A DNA stretch of 64,000 nucleotides, from positions 4,127 to 68,126 of the forward strand of contig DPDV01000007.1 in NCBI GenBank assembly GCA_003534295.1, in the 5' to 3' direction. Positions 883-63,533 of the stretch are shown piece by piece; the stretch's first letter is position 1, and each line of letters opens with the position of its first letter. Origin of the DNA: Clostridiales bacterium. GTDB taxonomy: Bacteria > Bacillota > Clostridia > TANB77 > CAG-508. The notes beneath the pieces were generated by a model that was given only the letters and a program-made list of their open reading frames with translations, searched no databases and was not told where the DNA came from. Made by a program: the position numbers and the translations under genes.

Positions 883-1018
883 GTGAAAAATGGTTCAATT
901 TATAATTGAAAAACGGACCACTTTTAGTTTATCAAAAACAATAAATAATGCCGACAAAAAATGTAGGCATAAAATTACTTGTACAAAATAAGTAGTTACA
1001 TATATATTTTCTTTTAGG

Positions 1019-1366
1019 ATAGTTTACAAACACACACCACATGGAATAGATGTATATCCAGTATCTGCTGCTGGAAATCCATGGACTGCAAGCTATATTG
1101 CAGCAAAAGGAGATCCAATTGCTAACCTTCAAGAAGATTTAGCGGCAGAACAGAAAGCTAGGGCAACTTATGAAAAGCTAATAGATCTTTCAAAAGATGA
1201 TCCGGATGTTGTTGATGTTCTTAGATTTTTACGTCAAAGAGAAGTAGTGCACTTCCAAAGATTTGGAGAGGCGCTTCGAGGAGTGCAGGATAAACTTGCA
1301 GAAAAGAAGTTTTATATGGCAAGTTGTAATAAACAAATGTGTAATAGTAATGATAATAACACCTAA
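1019..1366 (+). pseudogene. cotJC: CotJC-like manganese-catalase-family spore coat protein, 3' fragment (lacks ~100 N-terminal codons and a start)
   Basis: Translation ...HGIDVYPVSAAGNPWTASYIAAKGDPIANLQEDLAAEQKARATYEKLIDLSKDDPDVVDVLRFLRQREVVHFQRFGEAL... matches the C-terminal half of CotJC/Mn-catalase proteins. The frame is closed by a stop at 992-994 and there is no start codon. Confidence 0.6.
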
Positions 1367-1515
1367 TAATAATTGAACTTAAAGAATGCTATAGATAAAA
1401 ATAAATTGACATGAAATTTAAATAGTGTTATAAATATATGCAATGGTAAAAAGTTGCATATATTTTGTTTATTTTATTAAGAAGAGAATAATTCAAGGAG
1501 AAGAATAAGAAATAA

Positions 1516-2403
1516 ATGGAAGAATTAAAGAAATGCGTAATATGTCCTCATAATTGCAATGTGAATAGATTAGAAGGAAAGATGGGAAGGTGCAAGTGTA
1601 AAGACAAAATTAAACTAGCATTAGTATCAACACATAATTACGAAGAACCTTGTATATCAGGAAATAATGGCTCAGGAACAATATTTTTTTCTAACTGTAA
1701 TTTGAATTGCATGTATTGCCAAAATTATGAAATAAGTCAATTGGGCAAAGGAAGAGAAATATCTATAGAAGAATTAGCAAATATTTTTAATGAACAACAG
1801 CAAAGGAAAGTGAATAACATTAATTTAGTTACTCCAACAATGTATGCATTTCAAATAATAGAAGCAATTAAAATAGCAAGAAAGAATGGACTTTCAATAC
1901 CAATTATATATAACACAAATGGATATGAAAAAGTTGAAACATTAAAAGCTTTAGATGGATACATAGACATATATTTGCCAGATTTAAAATATTATTCAAA
2001 TGAACTCTCAAAAAAGTATTCTAAGGTGGATAATTATTTTGATATAGCAACAGAAGCAATAAAAGAAATGTATAGACAAGTTGGCAAACCCAAATTTAAT
2101 AAAGATGGTATAATACAAAAAGGTGTAATTATAAGACATTTGGTTTTACCAAATCATATTCAAAACAGCAAAAATATTTTAAAATGGATAAAGCAAAATA
2201 TGCCAAAAGACATATATGTTAGTGTAATGGCTCAGTATTTTCCAACATATAAAGCCAAAGAAGACAATTATATAAACAGAAAGCTTACAAAAAATGAGTA
2301 TAAAGAAATAGAAAATTATTTATATACACTAGAACTTCAAAATGGATACATACAAGAATTAGGAGAACATGAAGAAGAATATGTTCCAAAGTTTGATTTT
2401 TAA
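1516..2403 (+). CDS. radical SAM protein, PflX/PFL-activase-like
   Basis: N-terminal Cys cluster (CVICPHNCNVNRLEGKMGRCKC) followed by the radical-SAM motif CNLNCMYCQN, which is activase-like (CxxxCxYCxN). About 295 aa, typical of the PflX family. Confidence 0.6.
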   Translation: MEELKKCVICPHNCNVNRLEGKMGRCKCKDKIKLALVSTHNYEEPCISGNNGSGTIFFSNCNLNCMYCQNYEISQLGKGREISIEELANIFNEQQQRKVNNINLVTPTMYAFQIIEAIKIARKNGLSIPIIYNTNGYEKVETLKALDGYIDIYLPDLKYYSNELSKKYSKVDNYFDIATEAIKEMYRQVGKPKFNKDGIIQKGVIIRHLVLPNHIQNSKNILKWIKQNMPKDIYVSVMAQYFPTYKAKEDNYINRKLTKNEYKEIENYLYTLELQNGYIQELGEHEEEYVPKFDF

Positions 2404-2474
2404 TTGAAAGAATGATATAAATAACATATATTTATTATCAATATGAAATGTAATAATATAAGGAGCAATAAAAT

Positions 2475-3668
2475 ATGAAGAAAAAAGTATTAGCCTCAAC
2501 TAAACCAGGATATGAATTGCCAATTGAGCAAGCTATAGAATTTTCAGGATTAGAAGCGGGAATGTGCTATATGCCGGATAATGTAGATGCTCTTTTCTCT
2601 GAAGATAAAGAAAAAACAATAAAAAGAGCGCAAGGAACAATGACATCTGGGCATCATAGCGTATTCGGACATGTGAAGTATAATTTTGCCTTTGAGGAGA
2701 TTCCTAAAATTTTAGCAATGGTTTTAAACAATGAAAAAGTATACGATACATCTGAGAAATCAGCTAGATATACCAAAATGAAAGCATCAGAGGAAGAAGA
2801 AGCATTATATGAAAAGTGGATAAAAATTTATTCTAACGAAATAGAAAAAATATATCCAAAGGTAAAGATAGCAGAAAAGACAGAACAGCAACTGGAAAAG
2901 GAAATAAAAAATAGAAATACAGCAATAAGAAAAAAGGCTCAGGAAAATGCCAGATATTTAATATCTGTATTCACACCAGCAACTACAATGGGACATACTA
3001 TAGATATTAGACAATTTAGCTATATATTGCACTGGATGGACGATTTTTGTAGGAAAGAGCAAAATTCAAAATTTAATGTAATGCTAAAGCAAGTTTTTAA
3101 AGAATTTGAAGAATTATGTGAAAAATATAAAATAGAAAGAGTAAATACAGAAGTAAAGCAACGAGGACTTTCGTTGTTTGCAAAAAGAGAAAGAGAAGAA
3201 GAGTGGGGCGAAAATTATTCTACTAATTATTTAGCAAGCTTTGCGGAGGTCGCACAAGCGCAAAGGCATAGAACAATATATTATGAAATTACATTATTAG
3301 ATGAGCCACAATATTATATTCCTTTAATTATAAAGGATACTGAACTGGAGAAAGAATGGTTAAAAGATATATCATCTTTAGCTAATAGATTTCCACAAGG
3401 AATGCTTGTAAAAGTAAATGAGAGAGGAACTGTAGAAAATTTTATTCTAAAATGTAAAGAAAGATTATGCGGAGAAGCACAATTGGAAATAGAATTACAA
3501 ACTAATGAAACACTACATAAATACTTAGAAAATACAAAAGAAAGTAAACCGATAATATATAATTACTTGTTGCCATATGCAAAAGGTGTAAGATGTACTT
3601 TTCCAGGTTTTAAATGTACTAAACCATGTATATGGGGTGCAAAAGAAGCTTTACAGAGAAAATTTTAG
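2475..3668 (+). CDS. ThyX-like (Thy1-fold) tandem-domain protein
   Basis: The first half carries the ThyX GHxSVFxH motif (TSGHHSVFGHV), a YxxxSxRY segment (VYDTSEKSARY) and an R..L....T.....T.N.R.L..F..LR-like segment. The second half carries QRHRTIYYE (RHR motif). At 397 aa it is about twice canonical ThyX. Confidence 0.45.
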   Translation: MKKKVLASTKPGYELPIEQAIEFSGLEAGMCYMPDNVDALFSEDKEKTIKRAQGTMTSGHHSVFGHVKYNFAFEEIPKILAMVLNNEKVYDTSEKSARYTKMKASEEEEALYEKWIKIYSNEIEKIYPKVKIAEKTEQQLEKEIKNRNTAIRKKAQENARYLISVFTPATTMGHTIDIRQFSYILHWMDDFCRKEQNSKFNVMLKQVFKEFEELCEKYKIERVNTEVKQRGLSLFAKREREEEWGENYSTNYLASFAEVAQAQRHRTIYYEITLLDEPQYYIPLIIKDTELEKEWLKDISSLANRFPQGMLVKVNERGTVENFILKCKERLCGEAQLEIELQTNETLHKYLENTKESKPIIYNYLLPYAKGVRCTFPGFKCTKPCIWGAKEALQRKF

Positions 3669-3711
3669 CAACAGATAAATTAAATATAGAGAATTTCAAA
3701 ATAGAAATTCT

Positions 3712-4407
3712 CTATATTTTTATACCTTCAAGTTCGTGCTCATATTTTTTATAATTAGGACAATACTTTTCAATTATATTCCAAAAACCTTTACTGTGAG
3801 TTTTATATTTTAAATGACAGAATTCGTGTATTACTATATAATCTATAATTTCAGACCTATATCTTGCTATACAAGGGCTAAAGGAAATACATCTATCATC
3901 AAAAGAAAATTTAGCAATAGTATTACCTAAGTCTTCAATGCAATAATCTTCTGGAGCAATGCCTAACAATAACCTAGCTTTTTCCATAGATTTTTCTAAT
4001 TCATTACAGCAAACTTTGAAATATAACTTTTCCATTAATATTCTCAAGATATCAGAATCTTCAAGTTTTTTATATTTAGCAGGTAAAATAACCTCAACTT
4101 TACCATTGATTAAATTGATTGTTGGTTTAATATGGTTTTTATAAAGGATGCAAATATGGTAATCATTTCCTAGTAATTTAATAACACCTTTGTCTAAAAA
4201 AGAATTGCGATTCTTATTATACTCTTCAATTTTGGAAATAATCCATTGCCTTTTTTCAATTATAACTTCTTGAATATGTCGTCTAGAAACATACCAAGGA
4301 GCGTTAACAATAACCTCATTACCATCTACGCAAATACATAAAGCGCCAGACATAGCTTTGTTCACAGTATATGGAATTACGTTATTTTTAAATTTTAAAA
4401 TACTCAT
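3712..4407 (-). CDS. YgjP/DUF45-family M48-like zinc metallohydrolase
   Basis: HEFCHL (HExxH) motif near the C-terminus. About 230 aa, with layout typical of the YgjP family. Start assigned to MSILKFKN. Confidence 0.6.
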   Translation of the reverse strand: MSILKFKNNVIPYTVNKAMSGALCICVDGNEVIVNAPWYVSRRHIQEVIIEKRQWIISKIEEYNKNRNSFLDKGVIKLLGNDYHICILYKNHIKPTINLINGKVEVILPAKYKKLEDSDILRILMEKLYFKVCCNELEKSMEKARLLLGIAPEDYCIEDLGNTIAKFSFDDRCISFSPCIARYRSEIIDYIVIHEFCHLKYKTHSKGFWNIIEKYCPNYKKYEHELEGIKI

Positions 4408-6393: not shown

Positions 6394-6966
6394 GTGAGTA
6401 TAAAGATAGTATCAGAAAGAACAAAAGCAGAAAAAGAATGGGAAAAAAGAAAAATAGAAATAGAAGAAATGCTAGAAAATGCAATAATAGAAATTTGTTA
6501 TTTTTTTGAAGGTACTGAAACAAATGTGGGAGAGCGCTTAATTGAGTTAGTACATTACTGTGCTCAAAAGCTAATGCAGAAAGATATAAAAGATGAGGAA
6601 AAGGCTAATTTTGAAAAATACTTAAAGGAGCCAATAGAAGAAGGATTAAAGTATATGATATGCGAATACTGCAATGATGATAGAGCAAATCTCAAAAAAA
6701 ATAATAGAAAATATATAGAATATTTTTTAGGCATGTCAATGATATTAAATGAAACTATGGAAATAAACATAAAAGCTCCAAAACTATTACCATACTATAG
6801 GAACTTGGAAAGGCAATATAAACAAGCAAAACTACAAATGAATCCAAATCATCAAAAAAGAATAGAACAAATGGAAAGAGCATTAGGACTTATAGAACCA
6901 AGTAACGATGAAAGAACAGAGGGAAAAGTAATAGAAATAATAAAAAGAAATGATAGGGAAAAATAA
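6394..6966 (+). CDS. hypothetical protein inserted between ffh and rpsP
   Basis: 190-aa ORF with a GTG start and no recognisable domain. It sits where ffh and rpsP are usually adjacent. Confidence 0.45.
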   Translation: MSIKIVSERTKAEKEWEKRKIEIEEMLENAIIEICYFFEGTETNVGERLIELVHYCAQKLMQKDIKDEEKANFEKYLKEPIEEGLKYMICEYCNDDRANLKKNNRKYIEYFLGMSMILNETMEINIKAPKLLPYYRNLERQYKQAKLQMNPNHQKRIEQMERALGLIEPSNDERTEGKVIEIIKRNDREK

Positions 6967-55217: not shown

Positions 55218-56216
55218 ATGTTTTTACCAAAGCAAATTTTATATGAAAAGAATGTTAAAAATTACGAGTTGGGAAGAGAATTATTAGAACAATACAAAGA
55301 CATCCCTAAAATGATTATAGAAAACCATAATAATATACCTGAGATGAGAGGTAAACAAAATTGTGAATTTGTAGACATGAAAAAGAACTTGATTATAGGA
55401 ATAAGAAAGACACATAAATTTGTTCCAAACCATAAGACTTCTGATTTTCTAGTACCATATACTTCTTCTGGTTGTACAGCAATGTGTATGTACTGCTATT
55501 TAGTGTGTAACTATAATAAATGTTCATATTTAAGGCTGTTCGTAAATAGAGAAGACATGCTTTCAAAAATAATAAAAGTTGCTAATCAAAGTGACAAAGA
55601 ATTAACTTTTGAGATTGGTAGCAATAGTGATTTAATATTAGAAAACACAATTACAAACAATTTAGAGTGGACAATACCAAAATTTGCCCAAAATAATAAA
55701 GGATATTTAACGTTTCCAACTAAATTTGATATGGTTGAGCCAATACTAAATTTAGAACATAATAATAGAGTTATAGTAAGAATGAGTGTAAATCCAAGTA
55801 TAATTATACAAAAGGTGGAGCTTGGTACATCTAGCTTGGAGAAGAGAGTTGAAGCGGTAAATAAGTTGAAAGATGCAGGATATAAAGTAGGGATATTAAT
55901 AGCACCAATTATTTTAATTGATAACTGGCAAGATAAATATGAAAAGTTAATAATATATCTTAAGGAGAAATTGAATGATAATGTTAAAAAAGATGTATTT
56001 TTTGAACTTATTTTTATGACATATAGTTATGTTCATAAAATGATAAACAATGATGCATTTCCCAATGCAATAAAATTATTTGACGAGAATATAATGACAG
56101 GAAGAGGCAAAGGAAAATACATGTATAAAGAAAAAGTAAAAGATGAGGCAAGATTATTTTTTGAGAAAAAAATGAAAGAATATTTTCCAGATAATAAAAT
56201 AATGTATATAGTGTAA
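55218..56216 (+). CDS. splB: spore photoproduct lyase (radical SAM)
   Basis: CTAMCMYCY radical-SAM cluster in the SPL-typical context. 332 aa, with SplB-like overall layout. Confidence 0.8.
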   Translation: MFLPKQILYEKNVKNYELGRELLEQYKDIPKMIIENHNNIPEMRGKQNCEFVDMKKNLIIGIRKTHKFVPNHKTSDFLVPYTSSGCTAMCMYCYLVCNYNKCSYLRLFVNREDMLSKIIKVANQSDKELTFEIGSNSDLILENTITNNLEWTIPKFAQNNKGYLTFPTKFDMVEPILNLEHNNRVIVRMSVNPSIIIQKVELGTSSLEKRVEAVNKLKDAGYKVGILIAPIILIDNWQDKYEKLIIYLKEKLNDNVKKDVFFELIFMTYSYVHKMINNDAFPNAIKLFDENIMTGRGKGKYMYKEKVKDEARLFFEKKMKEYFPDNKIMYIV

Positions 56217-62045: not shown

Positions 62046-62159
62046 AATATTTGTAGGCAAAAATAAAAATTTTGTCTACATTTTTTAATTTAATATTGAA
62101 AAAACATGGTTAATCCAATACAATGTAATCGCCAAAAAACAACGAAAGGATTGATAACC

Positions 62160-63533
62160 ATGTTTGAAGAAATTATAGCAAGTAAAGAAGTAAAATTCAA
62201 TGATTTAGAGAAAAAAGTTTTTAAATTTGTATGTTTTTTTGGATGTTTAATAATAAAATTAATGTTAGAAGTGTACGATAGGAAATTAATGGAAAATAGA
62301 GATAAGAAAAAATATAGACATAAAGGATTACGACAAACATCAGTAAATACAATAATGGGAGAAATAAAATATAAAAGAGTAATGTATGAAGTTCAAGAAG
62401 AAGGAATAACAAAAACAGTATATTTATTAGATGAAACATTAAAAATAAGTGCGGAAGGAAAAGCATCAAGTAATTTAGTAGAAAAAGTAATAGAAACAGT
62501 ACCAGTAACAGATTCATATAGAAAAGCAGAAGAAGTAATAGATACAACAACAAATACATCTCTAAGTCATGAGAAAATAAGAAATATTATAGTAAAGATA
62601 GGAGATAAAATAACAAATAAAGAAAAAAAAGAAAGAAAATTATTTGATAAAAACCAGTTAGTAGCAGGACTAAAAGAAGTAACAGCATTATTTGAAGAAG
62701 CAGATGGAATATGGATAAATTTACAAGGAAAAGATAGAAAAGAAAGATTAGAAAAAAACAAACAAAAAGTAGAAAGAGAAAACAAAGAATTTAATCCAAA
62801 GATGAAAATAAAAACAGAGCTTAAATTACATGTAATGTATGAAGGATGGAAAAAAGAAGATTCCAGACATAGTTTAGTAAATAAGCAATATATAGCAAGA
62901 ATAATGAAATCAAAAGAAATAGCAAGATTAAGAGATGCAAGAGCATTTAGTCAATATGATGAAAGTAAAATAAAATTAAGAGTAACAAATGGAGATAGAG
63001 CAAAATGGACAAAAGGAACAACAGCCAAAGGAGGAATATATCAAAAAGACCAATTTCATATAATGCAAGAAATAGTAAGAGGTGTACCAATAGAATATAA
63101 AAATATATTTATTGAATTAATAAATAAAAAAGAATTTGAAAAAATAGAACCAGCAATAGATGGATTAAAATACGAATTAAATGGAGAATATCAGGCAGTA
63201 AAGAAATTGAATAAGTTAGAAAGTTATTTAAGCAGTGATTTAGAAAGATATCAAGATATAGTAGAAATCCCAGAAGCACCAGAAGGAATAGAATATAGGA
63301 ATATGGGAACACAAGAAAGTTAAATATTTAGTAAATTAAAGAAAAGATTTTGTAGCGGAAGAAAAGCATTTGGAATACATGGAGCAAATGCATTAAGTAG
63401 AATATGTGTATTAAGTGAGAAGTTTAATATAGATGAATTAGAAACCCCAACACCAATAGACACAAGTGCAGAAGATTGGATAAAAGAAATAATGAAATTA
63501 AAAGAATTTTCAGAAATGAGATGTAGTTTTTAA
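62160..63533 (+). pseudogene. ISLre2/UPF0236-type transposase gene with in-frame TAA at 63321-63323
   Basis: MFEEIIASKEVKFNDLEKKVFKF...DRKLMENRDKKKYRHKGLRQTSVNTIMGEIKYKRVMY follows the UPF0236 N-terminal pattern. The same frame continues after the TAA for 69 more codons (IFSKLKKRFCSGRKAFGIHGANALSRICVL...). The combined length of about 457 aa is in the range expected for the family. Confidence 0.5.

Follow-up and report, generated by a model that had tools for sequence, protein, structure and literature searches.

Flavin-dependent thymidylate synthase (ThyX) is essential in many bacteria and absent from humans, and it is an antimicrobial target under active study. We take the canonical enzyme (ThyX/FDTS) to be that of Pfam PF02511 and EC 2.1.1.148, with T. 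maritima TM0449 and M. tuberculosis (Mtb) ThyX as examples. In the literature that we searched, every ThyX enzyme described is a homotetramer whose subunits each consist of a single Thy1 domain, and its four sites are identical. Each site is assembled from three monomers of the homotetramer, and roles have been assigned to individual residues; R78 stabilises the reduced flavin, and R174 contacts both the flavin and uracil (PMC11940539, PMC3498832, PMC5954106).

Here, we describe a relative of these enzymes, Thy1L, that departs from this plan. The protein has two domains per chain and about twice the usual length, and its chains would be expected to pair into a dimer with two complete sites rather than a tetramer with four. 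Further differences are a linker, two long helical inserts and four additional cysteines that are nearly invariant. Like canonical ThyX, it shows the Thy1 fold (in both halves), contains the FAD/dUMP-binding and critical catalytic residues, is annotated as ThyX in databases and sits among folate and thymidylate genes. A ThyX with an additional domain has a precedent in Thermus thermophilus Thy1 (PDB 6j61, among the Foldseek matches), but that protein, going by the title of its entry, has an added C-terminal domain, with no sign of a repeated Thy1 unit whose motifs complement those of the first. PolB (PDB 4p5a), which we take to be a ThyX paralogue of polyoxin biosynthesis that methylates C5 of UMP/dUMP, is a single-domain protein of a Streptomyces secondary-metabolite cluster, whereas Thy1L is tandem and occurs in housekeeping or thymidylate contexts in gut Clostridia. 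Literature searches for fused, tandem or Fe-S ThyX, and also for PflX and ThyX-like proteins, returned no description of the Thy1L architecture.

Two Thy1 domains and a divided signature

In the window (the whole 64-kb stretch of DNA analysed here), the Thy1L gene occupies 2475..3668 on the forward strand and encodes 397 aa, a candidate single-chain ThyX variant. The original prediction had placed it beside a radical-SAM gene on the same strand, and both ORFs are indeed there, 71 bp apart. No ThyA or canonical ThyX signature was found elsewhere within the window.

The N-terminal Thy1 domain (2475..3119, forward strand; residues 1 to about 215) is delimited by Pfam Thy1, by alignment to the Mtb and H. 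pylori ThyX proteins and by conservation. It retains GHHSVFGH (residues 59-66), S96-A-R98-Y99 and E157-N-A-R160-Y, has N85-N86-E87 at the position of RHR, and lacks an equivalent of R174. PF02511 matches this half at 49.3 bits against a cutoff of 24.8 (residues 28-188), and the family profile aligns it with the solved Mtb and H. pylori chains, with N-N-E replacing RHR. The C-terminal Thy1-fold domain (3138..3665, forward strand; residues 222-397) retains R264-H265-R266, within QRHRTIYYE (263-271), and R330...A335-Q336-x-E338-I, which by motif correspondence would be the canonical R174..AQxEI block; it lacks S-x-RY. Nowhere does one domain hold the contiguous RHR-x7-S-x-RY of canonical ThyX. 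Considering that the N-half combines N-N-E with SARY (96-99) while the C-half has RHR without S-x-RY, the ThyX signature is split across the two domains. The claim of a fused tandem Thy1 protein with complementary motif retention, motif quotations included, is thus borne out, and the split is what a pseudo-dimeric single-chain enzyme would be expected to need. A structure lacking the Thy1 fold, named with the original prediction as a refutation, did not turn up: the fold is present in both halves.

The internal duplication is visible in structure only. Comparison of the N-half and C-half profiles with hhalign found no similarity (probability 0.2%), and the C-half profile retrieved nothing relevant from PDB sequences; sequence models miss the second domain. 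The thyX equivalog TIGR02170, with a cutoff of 87.9 bits, scores Thy1L at 44.1, through the N-half alone, and the family profile matches solved ThyX sequences weakly (E about 1e-4). Both the sub-threshold score and these weak matches count against assignment to ThyX.

The divided arrangement is conserved throughout a large family, carried by roughly 456 GTDB species. About 308 Thy1L clusters (50% identity) were found at E <= 1e-30; the best 150 of these are mostly 380-420 aa long, and the match spans nearly the whole query. Relatives are therefore as long as Thy1L itself, and a misassembly or duplication artefact, which the original prediction had allowed for, is rejected by hundreds of independent full-length relatives of equal length. 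Across a set of 96 family members reaching down to 36% identity, the N-half residues H60 (95/96), S96 (95/96), R98 (96/96), Y99 (94/96) and R160 (95/96) are conserved, as are R264 (95/96), H265 (90/96), R266 (94/96) and R330 (95/96) in the C-half. These counts indicate that complementary motif retention reflects selection and not chance. A chain carries a single copy of each catalytic motif, and conservation of these motifs stays at 90% or more among members as distant as 34-36% identity. The equivalents of H53, R78-R80, S88, R90, Y91, R147 and R174, which cover catalysis and FAD/dUMP binding, are all found, in 90-96 of the 96 proteins; the equivalences come from an HMM alignment for the N-half and, more tentatively, from motif correspondence for the C-half. 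In NCBI and JGI records, family members go by FAD-dependent thymidylate synthase or ThyX; for distant representatives, cluster-member names are almost all empty. The family is named like ordinary ThyX despite failing the equivalog threshold.

How might such a chain work? The two-domain fold, the motif partition with its conservation, and the gene neighbourhoods are direct observations, and alongside them we infer that Thy1L is probably a flavin-dependent thymidylate synthase that is duplicated within a single chain. Its origin would lie in an ancient duplication and fusion of a Thy1 domain, followed by complementary motif loss. The N-domain would have kept the flavin/folate-stacking H60 (H53 of T. 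maritima), the active-site loop with E94, S96, R98 and Y99 (E86, S88, R90 and Y91) and the dUMP-phosphate arginine R160 (R147), and the C-domain would have kept the RHR of R264-R266 (R78-R80) together with the R330..AQxEI block (R174). Since a canonical site is built from three monomers, two Thy1L chains would be expected to form a pseudo-tetramer with two complete and two degenerate sites, the complete ones taking the loop and histidine from the N-domains and RHR plus the R174 equivalent from one C-domain. The architecture therefore predicts an enzyme with two working and two vestigial sites, and so large a fused-Thy1 family with divided motifs would be a natural experiment on which residues must come from which subunit. 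The chemistry would be the ThyX reaction, CH2-THF + dUMP + reduced FAD -> dTMP + THF, and Thy1L most likely still makes thymidylate.

The radical-SAM gene and other neighbours

The neighbouring gene (1516..2403, forward strand) encodes a 295-aa protein of the PflA/NrdG/QueE-like 'Fer4_12' type, as judged from the ORF and from comparisons with Pfam (Radical_SAM, 54 bits; Fer4_12, 29.9 bits), NCBIfam and the PDB. As in PflA, NrdG and QueE, a CX3CX2C motif in the N-terminal region lies in a GxG..FF..C context. This canonical radical-SAM cluster motif, CNLNCMYC (C61-x3-C65-x2-C68; 1696..1719, forward strand), is invariant in 34/34 orthologues. The best matches, NrdG2, PflA and QueE, are weak; PflA is the best solved relative (E 0.009). 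A homology search with the protein retrieved variants of at least 80% identity and no others, and in JGI its relatives bear the name 'putative pyruvate formate lyase activating enzyme'; PflX (COG1313), the label of the original prediction, is a candidate family. Unlike the activases and the PflX/AmmeMemoRadiSam-type proteins, it falls below every curated cutoff, with NrdG2 best among the NCBIfam equivalogs (43.5 vs 131.15) and PFLA (31.5 vs 231.75) and PFLE_PFLC (26.1 vs 174.35) further off. A second motif, C7-x2-C10-x3-C14...C26 (1534..1593, forward strand), has four cysteines that are invariant in the 34 full-length orthologues, and is a putative auxiliary Fe-S site. This motif and the AmmeMemoRadiSam radical-SAM model align from the start, the TIGR04337 match (24.9 bits vs 220) beginning at residue 6; in contrast to AmmeMemoRadiSam, the protein has no AMMECR1 or Memo partner.

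Nor is there a glycyl-radical substrate nearby. A cognate enzyme with the C-terminal RVxG[FYW] motif was sought in the window and in about 100 loci, with no match, and the motif occurs in 0/97 Thy1L proteins. Because the motif is missing from Thy1L and from the neighbouring ORFs, the classic activase-and-substrate reading of the pair was rejected.

The local layout suggests a single transcription unit. The radical-SAM start codon is preceded, at a distance of about 80 bp, by a promoter-like site, TTGACA-17 nt-TATAAA (1406..1434, forward strand). This consensus match comes from inspection of the sequence itself; the scanner passed over it because that program demands T at the last -10 position. 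The spacer between the genes (2404..2474, 71 bp, forward strand) is free of terminators and holds an AAGGAG ribosome-binding site 8 nt ahead of the Thy1L ATG. In the clade of the window, the two genes are probably co-transcribed. Downstream, Thy1L and a YgjP-like gene converge, and a 16-bp palindromic hairpin between them (3682..3719, no strand assigned) is a likely bidirectional terminator. Scanned with Rfam, the whole window yielded just two tRNAs, and the region 5' of the pair no riboswitch.

How general is the pairing? In 31/75 species-level loci the radical-SAM gene is found no more than 250 bp upstream of Thy1L, and 41/75 have it within 6 kb; it is missing from that 6-kb range in 34/75 and from 6/6 distant contexts. 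The gap shrinks to 4 bp, or to an overlap, in some loci, which suggests translational coupling, and the genes that flank the pair are of at least three kinds (ffh, DHFR-SPL and others). A check of neighbourhood conservation, proposed with the original prediction, thus shows a recurrent same-strand neighbour in several chromosomal contexts. The radical-SAM protein is a partner of Thy1L only in one branch of gut Clostridia, and not an obligate partner of the family. A search for Thy1L residues that separate linked from unlinked proteins found none.

Other neighbours recur as well. Among 80 species-level loci, DHFR lies directly 3' of Thy1L in 20, and FolD (10), dCMP deaminase (8) and ThyA (1) are also found; further, housekeeping, contexts include ylxM-ffh-rpsP-rimM-trmD, ftsZ, dxs-folD and eno. 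The DHFR, dCMP deaminase, FolD and ThyA context is at best supportive of dTMP activity. In the single ThyA locus (L049), a full-length ThyA (258 bits), unrelated to ThyX, lies between Thy1L and DHFR, and two paralogues of Thy1L occur together in some MAGs (L015/L044, L014/L081). Either observation could mean that Thy1L is something other than simply the housekeeping enzyme. Linkage to DHFR is typical of ThyA chemistry and unneeded for ThyX chemistry, which speaks against the ThyX reading; some DHFR activity is required anyway (PMC1971073).

Rival readings and the Cys4 site

Three other accounts of the gene pair deserve consideration. The original prediction favoured a nucleotide or nucleic-acid modification activity over dTMP synthesis, and its most explicit form is a two-enzyme system in which Thy1L carries out flavin-dependent methylene transfer, the radical-SAM protein elaborates or prepares the substrate, and the product is not plain dTMP. 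The frequent close linkage of the genes, with tight gaps in at least three contexts, fits such a system, as do the sub-threshold equivalog score, the co-occurrence with ThyA in L049 and the paralogue pairs; moreover, a phage radical-SAM enzyme acts on thymidine derivatives in DNA (PMC8989533). It is difficult to see, however, why all the residues known to matter for ThyX catalysis would then be retained, why no Thy1L residue tracks radical-SAM linkage, and why the partner would be absent from 34/75 loci and six distant contexts. The other recurrent neighbours are thymidylate-cycle genes rather than modification, kinase or glycosyltransferase genes, and no glycyl-radical motif or enzyme accompanies the pair. 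Comparisons with phage and defence systems gave no match either: a tblastn search of phage genomes came back empty, and PADLOC and PHROGs produced nothing beyond generic matches to radical-SAM proteins and weak ones to thymidylate synthase. The modification claim finds no support here, and we regard the two-enzyme system as quite improbable.

Perhaps the radical-SAM protein instead activates a glycyl-radical enzyme whose gene is elsewhere, be it the anaerobic (class III) ribonucleotide reductase or a different one, and lies beside Thy1L, DHFR and dCMP deaminase only through clustering of dNTP genes. NrdG2 and PflA as the best NCBIfam and PDB matches, a further PHROGs match to the anaerobic RNR small subunit, the clade-typical GxG..FF..C-x3-C-x2-C motif and the dNTP-metabolism theme of the cluster all point this way. 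Against these stand equivalog scores far below cutoff (43.5 vs 131; 31.5 vs 231), some 100 residues more than in NrdG, the additional invariant N-terminal Cys4, and the absence of NrdD or any other glycyl-radical enzyme from the window and about 100 loci, which leave an activase role rather unlikely. The adjacency could also be functionally meaningless, the radical-SAM gene being an inherited operon neighbour in one order-level group of gut Clostridia that was repeatedly lost or separated by insertions. Its patchy distribution on the Thy1L tree, unrelated genes between the pair in L020, L021, L069 and L084, the lack of any co-varying Thy1L residue and the missing linkage outside the clade would all be explained, but the pair persists while its flanks change (ffh vs the clpX...DHFR-SPL context), 4-bp gaps or overlaps suggest coupling, and the radical-SAM protein is better conserved (64-84% identity) than Thy1L (57-86%). 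We consider this explanation unlikely.

Within the single-chain ThyX interpretation, one feature of Thy1L has no canonical counterpart. The Cys-rich tail C374-x6-C381-x3-C385 (3594..3629, forward strand) may form, together with C332 (nt 3468-3470), a Cys4 site whose spatial clustering and metal binding are predicted from sequence. Conservation is high for C332 (96/96), C374 (90/96), C381 (96/96) and C385 (95/96), also in members at 34-41% identity, and C332 is two residues past R330, the putative R174 equivalent. The site would be either structural (Zn) or an Fe-S cluster, and its place beside an active-site arginine raises the possibility of a metal- or Fe-S-dependent ThyX. A doubtful extension joins both proteins: Thy1L would be an iron-sulfur flavoenzyme whose Cys4 site binds [4Fe-4S] and passes electrons from ferredoxin or flavodoxin to FAD, and in the clade of the window the co-transcribed radical-SAM protein would share the low-potential reductant or act on Thy1L or its nucleotide product. 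If so, strict anaerobes would possess a single-chain, half-of-sites ThyX independent of NAD(P)H. The Thy1L family is abundant in the gut, and one member (P0003) is present on at least 1000 contigs, human-gut samples among them.

Domain architecture and catalytic residues

The 397-aa protein Thy1L (window 2475..3668, + strand) was originally predicted to carry two Thy1 domains in tandem, and this architecture was confirmed. Pfam Thy1 covers only the N-half, at residues 28-188 (49.3 bits against a cutoff of 24.8), and the NCBIfam thyX equivalog model gives 44.1 bits, under its cutoff of 87.9. For the C-half, residues 222-397, sequence comparison detected no similarity to the N-half (hhalign probability 0.2%) or to PDB sequences. 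The family profile aligns the N-half '...GHHSV.DH...K....LNNE....TSEKSARY' with M. tuberculosis ThyX '...GHFSVLEH...R....LIRHR...SYSQLSQRY'.

The N-half keeps H60 (H53 in T. maritima numbering), E94 (E86), S96 (S88), R98 (R90), Y99 (Y91) and R160 (R147, in ENARY); it has lost RHR, with N85-N86-E87 instead, and has no R174-type Arg. Judging from motif correspondence, the C-half appears to keep RHR as R264-H265-R266, and its E329-R330-L-C332-G-x-A335-Q336-x-E338-I stretch appears to represent the canonical R174..AQxEI block; the C-half has lost S-x-RY. Across 96 sequences with identities as low as 36%, each of these residues is kept in 90-96, and they are likewise found in members at 34-41% identity. 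In canonical ThyX, R78 stabilises the flavin in its anionic reduced state; H53, which a third monomer contributes, packs against the flavin or folate and forms hydrogen bonds with Y91 and N85; and both S88 and Y91 are critical for activity (PMC11940539, PMC3498832, PMC5954106).

How might such a chain build an active site? ThyX is a homotetramer according to reviews. Every motif survives exactly once per Thy1L chain, such that two complete three-domain sites could be re-formed in a homodimer, with two others remaining vestigial. The searchable literature yielded no account of a ThyX that is tandem, pseudo-dimeric or Cys-rich; known departures from the ordinary enzyme are PolB, a paralogue, and a Thermus protein carrying an additional C-terminal domain (PDB 6j61).

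Four invariant or near-invariant cysteines all lie within the C-domain: C332 (96/96), two residues past the R174 equivalent, and C374 (90/96), C381 (96/96) and C385 (95/96), which are spaced as C-x6-C-x3-C within a C-terminal loop modelled with confidence. A candidate Cys4 Zn or [4Fe-4S] site can reasonably be proposed from this arrangement. Thy1L is moderately interesting already, and would be more so should this site turn out to be a redox cluster. C31 is invariant too, and is not specific to the family because it aligns with a cysteine of H. pylori ThyX.

Family distribution and gene neighbourhood

An exhaustive search returned 643 clusters (50% identity) at E <= 0.001 and 308 at E <= 1e-30, and a word-indexed search gave 4315 matches. 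The best 150 of the matching clusters are mostly 380-420 aa long and align across nearly the whole query, so the length is a family trait, and misassembly was rejected as its cause. Some chlamydial ThyX proteins are unusually long too. Named members are called 'FAD-dependent thymidylate synthase' or 'ThyX'. With one genome scanned per GTDB species, 456 loci came to light, virtually all of them in uncultured gut and rumen Clostridia; one relative (P0003) was seen on at least 1000 contigs, and a phage genome search gave no match. NCBI assigns one 409-aa member, P0427, to a Methanobrevibacter MAG, which reflects either misbinning or acquisition by an archaeon.

In the window (G+C ~28%), a 295-aa radical-SAM ORF (1516..2403, +) lies 71 bp upstream of Thy1L. 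A hairpin scan found no terminator-like hairpin between the two ORFs, the Thy1L ATG is preceded by an AAGGAG ribosome-binding site, a 16-bp palindromic hairpin (3682..3719) lies 3' of the stop codon, and a TTGACA-17-TATAAA site, read by eye, stands ~80 bp 5' of the radical-SAM ORF. This layout is compatible with a bicistronic unit. Further 3' come a convergent YgjP-like gene and the housekeeping cluster ylxM, ffh, rpsP, a KH-domain gene, rimM, trmD and rplS.

Eighty species-level loci were compared, 75 of them with at least 1.2 kb upstream. A same-strand radical-SAM gene precedes Thy1L within 250 bp at 31 of these 75, within 1 kb at 36 and within 6 kb at 41; the smallest gap is 4 bp, and one pair overlaps by 12 bp. 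The pair is kept with differing flanks: ylxM-ffh is one context, another is radical-SAM gene, Thy1L, DHFR and spore photoproduct lyase, 3' of clpP-clpX, and further contexts exist. DHFR follows Thy1L directly in 20 loci (17 with the radical-SAM gene as well), spore photoproduct lyase is nearby in 18-19, FolD in 10, within dxs-folD synteny, and dCMP deaminase in 8. At locus L049 (5980-8740) an inserted gene for a full-length ThyA (258 bits) separates Thy1L from DHFR, whereas in sister loci L024 and L040 DHFR comes directly after Thy1L; L049 may have acquired this second, unrelated thymidylate synthase in situ.

At 27 species-level loci (e.g. L055 4224-4958) the gene immediately 5' of the radical-SAM gene encodes a ~224-aa protein that has a hydrophobic N-terminal segment and matches no Pfam family; this protein is absent from the window. 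At L021 (3702-5906), genes for an AAA_28-like P-loop protein, a NUDIX hydrolase and a PHP-domain phosphoesterase, perhaps related to nucleotide metabolism, are inserted between the pair. Two distant members have surroundings resembling mobile elements or defence islands (L091, with AAA_15/AAA_23 and Metallophos genes; L093, with RNase_T, DpnD-PcfM and PARG genes), unlike the housekeeping contexts of the window's clade.

Probable thymidylate synthesis and the radical-SAM protein

On the best-supported reading, Thy1L is probably a subfunctionalised ThyX in a single chain and continues to make dTMP. In support of this, the full catalytic residue set is kept, the neighbours are thymidylate-cycle genes, and ThyA occupies the same locus in L049, as expected if functionally equivalent genes displace one another. 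The original proposal of a non-canonical modification coupled to the radical-SAM protein found no specific support, and considering the retained residues and these neighbours it is unlikely. 

The radical-SAM protein has a canonical C61-x3-C65-x2-C68 in a GxG..FF..C context, Pfam matches to Radical_SAM and Fer4_12, and an invariant N-terminal C7-x2-C10-x3-C14...C26. Its best matches are weak and all under curated cutoffs: NrdG2 (43.5 bits against 131), PflA, the AmmeMemoRadiSam radical-SAM model and QueE. 'PflX' would be a plausible label. Neither the window nor any locus examined encodes a glycyl-radical enzyme, and Thy1L lacks a glycyl-radical motif; that the radical-SAM protein activates an enzyme encoded elsewhere, e.g. 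class III ribonucleotide reductase, is unlikely. A further alternative is that it is simply a neighbour with no functional link to Thy1L. The radical-SAM gene was not found within 6 kb at 34 of the 75 loci, whole subclades among them, and is missing in all six contexts sampled from members sharing 34-42% identity with the window protein (L091, L093, L095, L097, L098, L099); no alignment column separates 39 linked from 33 unlinked Thy1L proteins. Some MAGs hold two paralogues, one linked and one unlinked, ~10 kb apart on the same contig (L015/L044 on CANQDO010000011.1, L014/L081 on CANQSP010000001.1); the copy 73% identical to the window protein lacks a radical-SAM neighbour, and the ~60% identical copy has both the radical-SAM gene and the ylxM-ffh context. 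Set beside the close pairing across differing flanks, adjacency with no functional link is unlikely.

Other features of the window

The window encodes a bona fide spore photoproduct lyase (55218-56216, +; Pfam SPL, 230 bits) ~52 kb away from Thy1L; many relatives have this gene clustered with the radical-SAM gene, Thy1L and DHFR. The 64-kb window contains no DHFR, ThyA or FolD. At 1010-1366 (+), an open frame encodes no more than the last ~118 residues of a Mn-catalase/CotJC-like protein ('...GIDVYPVSAAGNPWTASYIAAKGDP...VVHFQRFGEAL...') and looks like a 5'-truncated remnant, since it has no usable start codon. Loci L001-L004 have a 137-164 aa Mn_catalase gene at the equivalent position, adjoining a large serine recombinase, and the window's first ~1 kb may form the margin of an inserted element. 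A 190-aa ORF (6394-6966, +; GTG start, no credible Pfam match) lies between ffh and rpsP, and appears to be inserted in this highly conserved cluster because rpsP directly follows ffh in the 86%-identical L001. Near the right end, 62106-63323 (+) encodes a protein (128.7 bits) of UPF0236, a transposase-like family.
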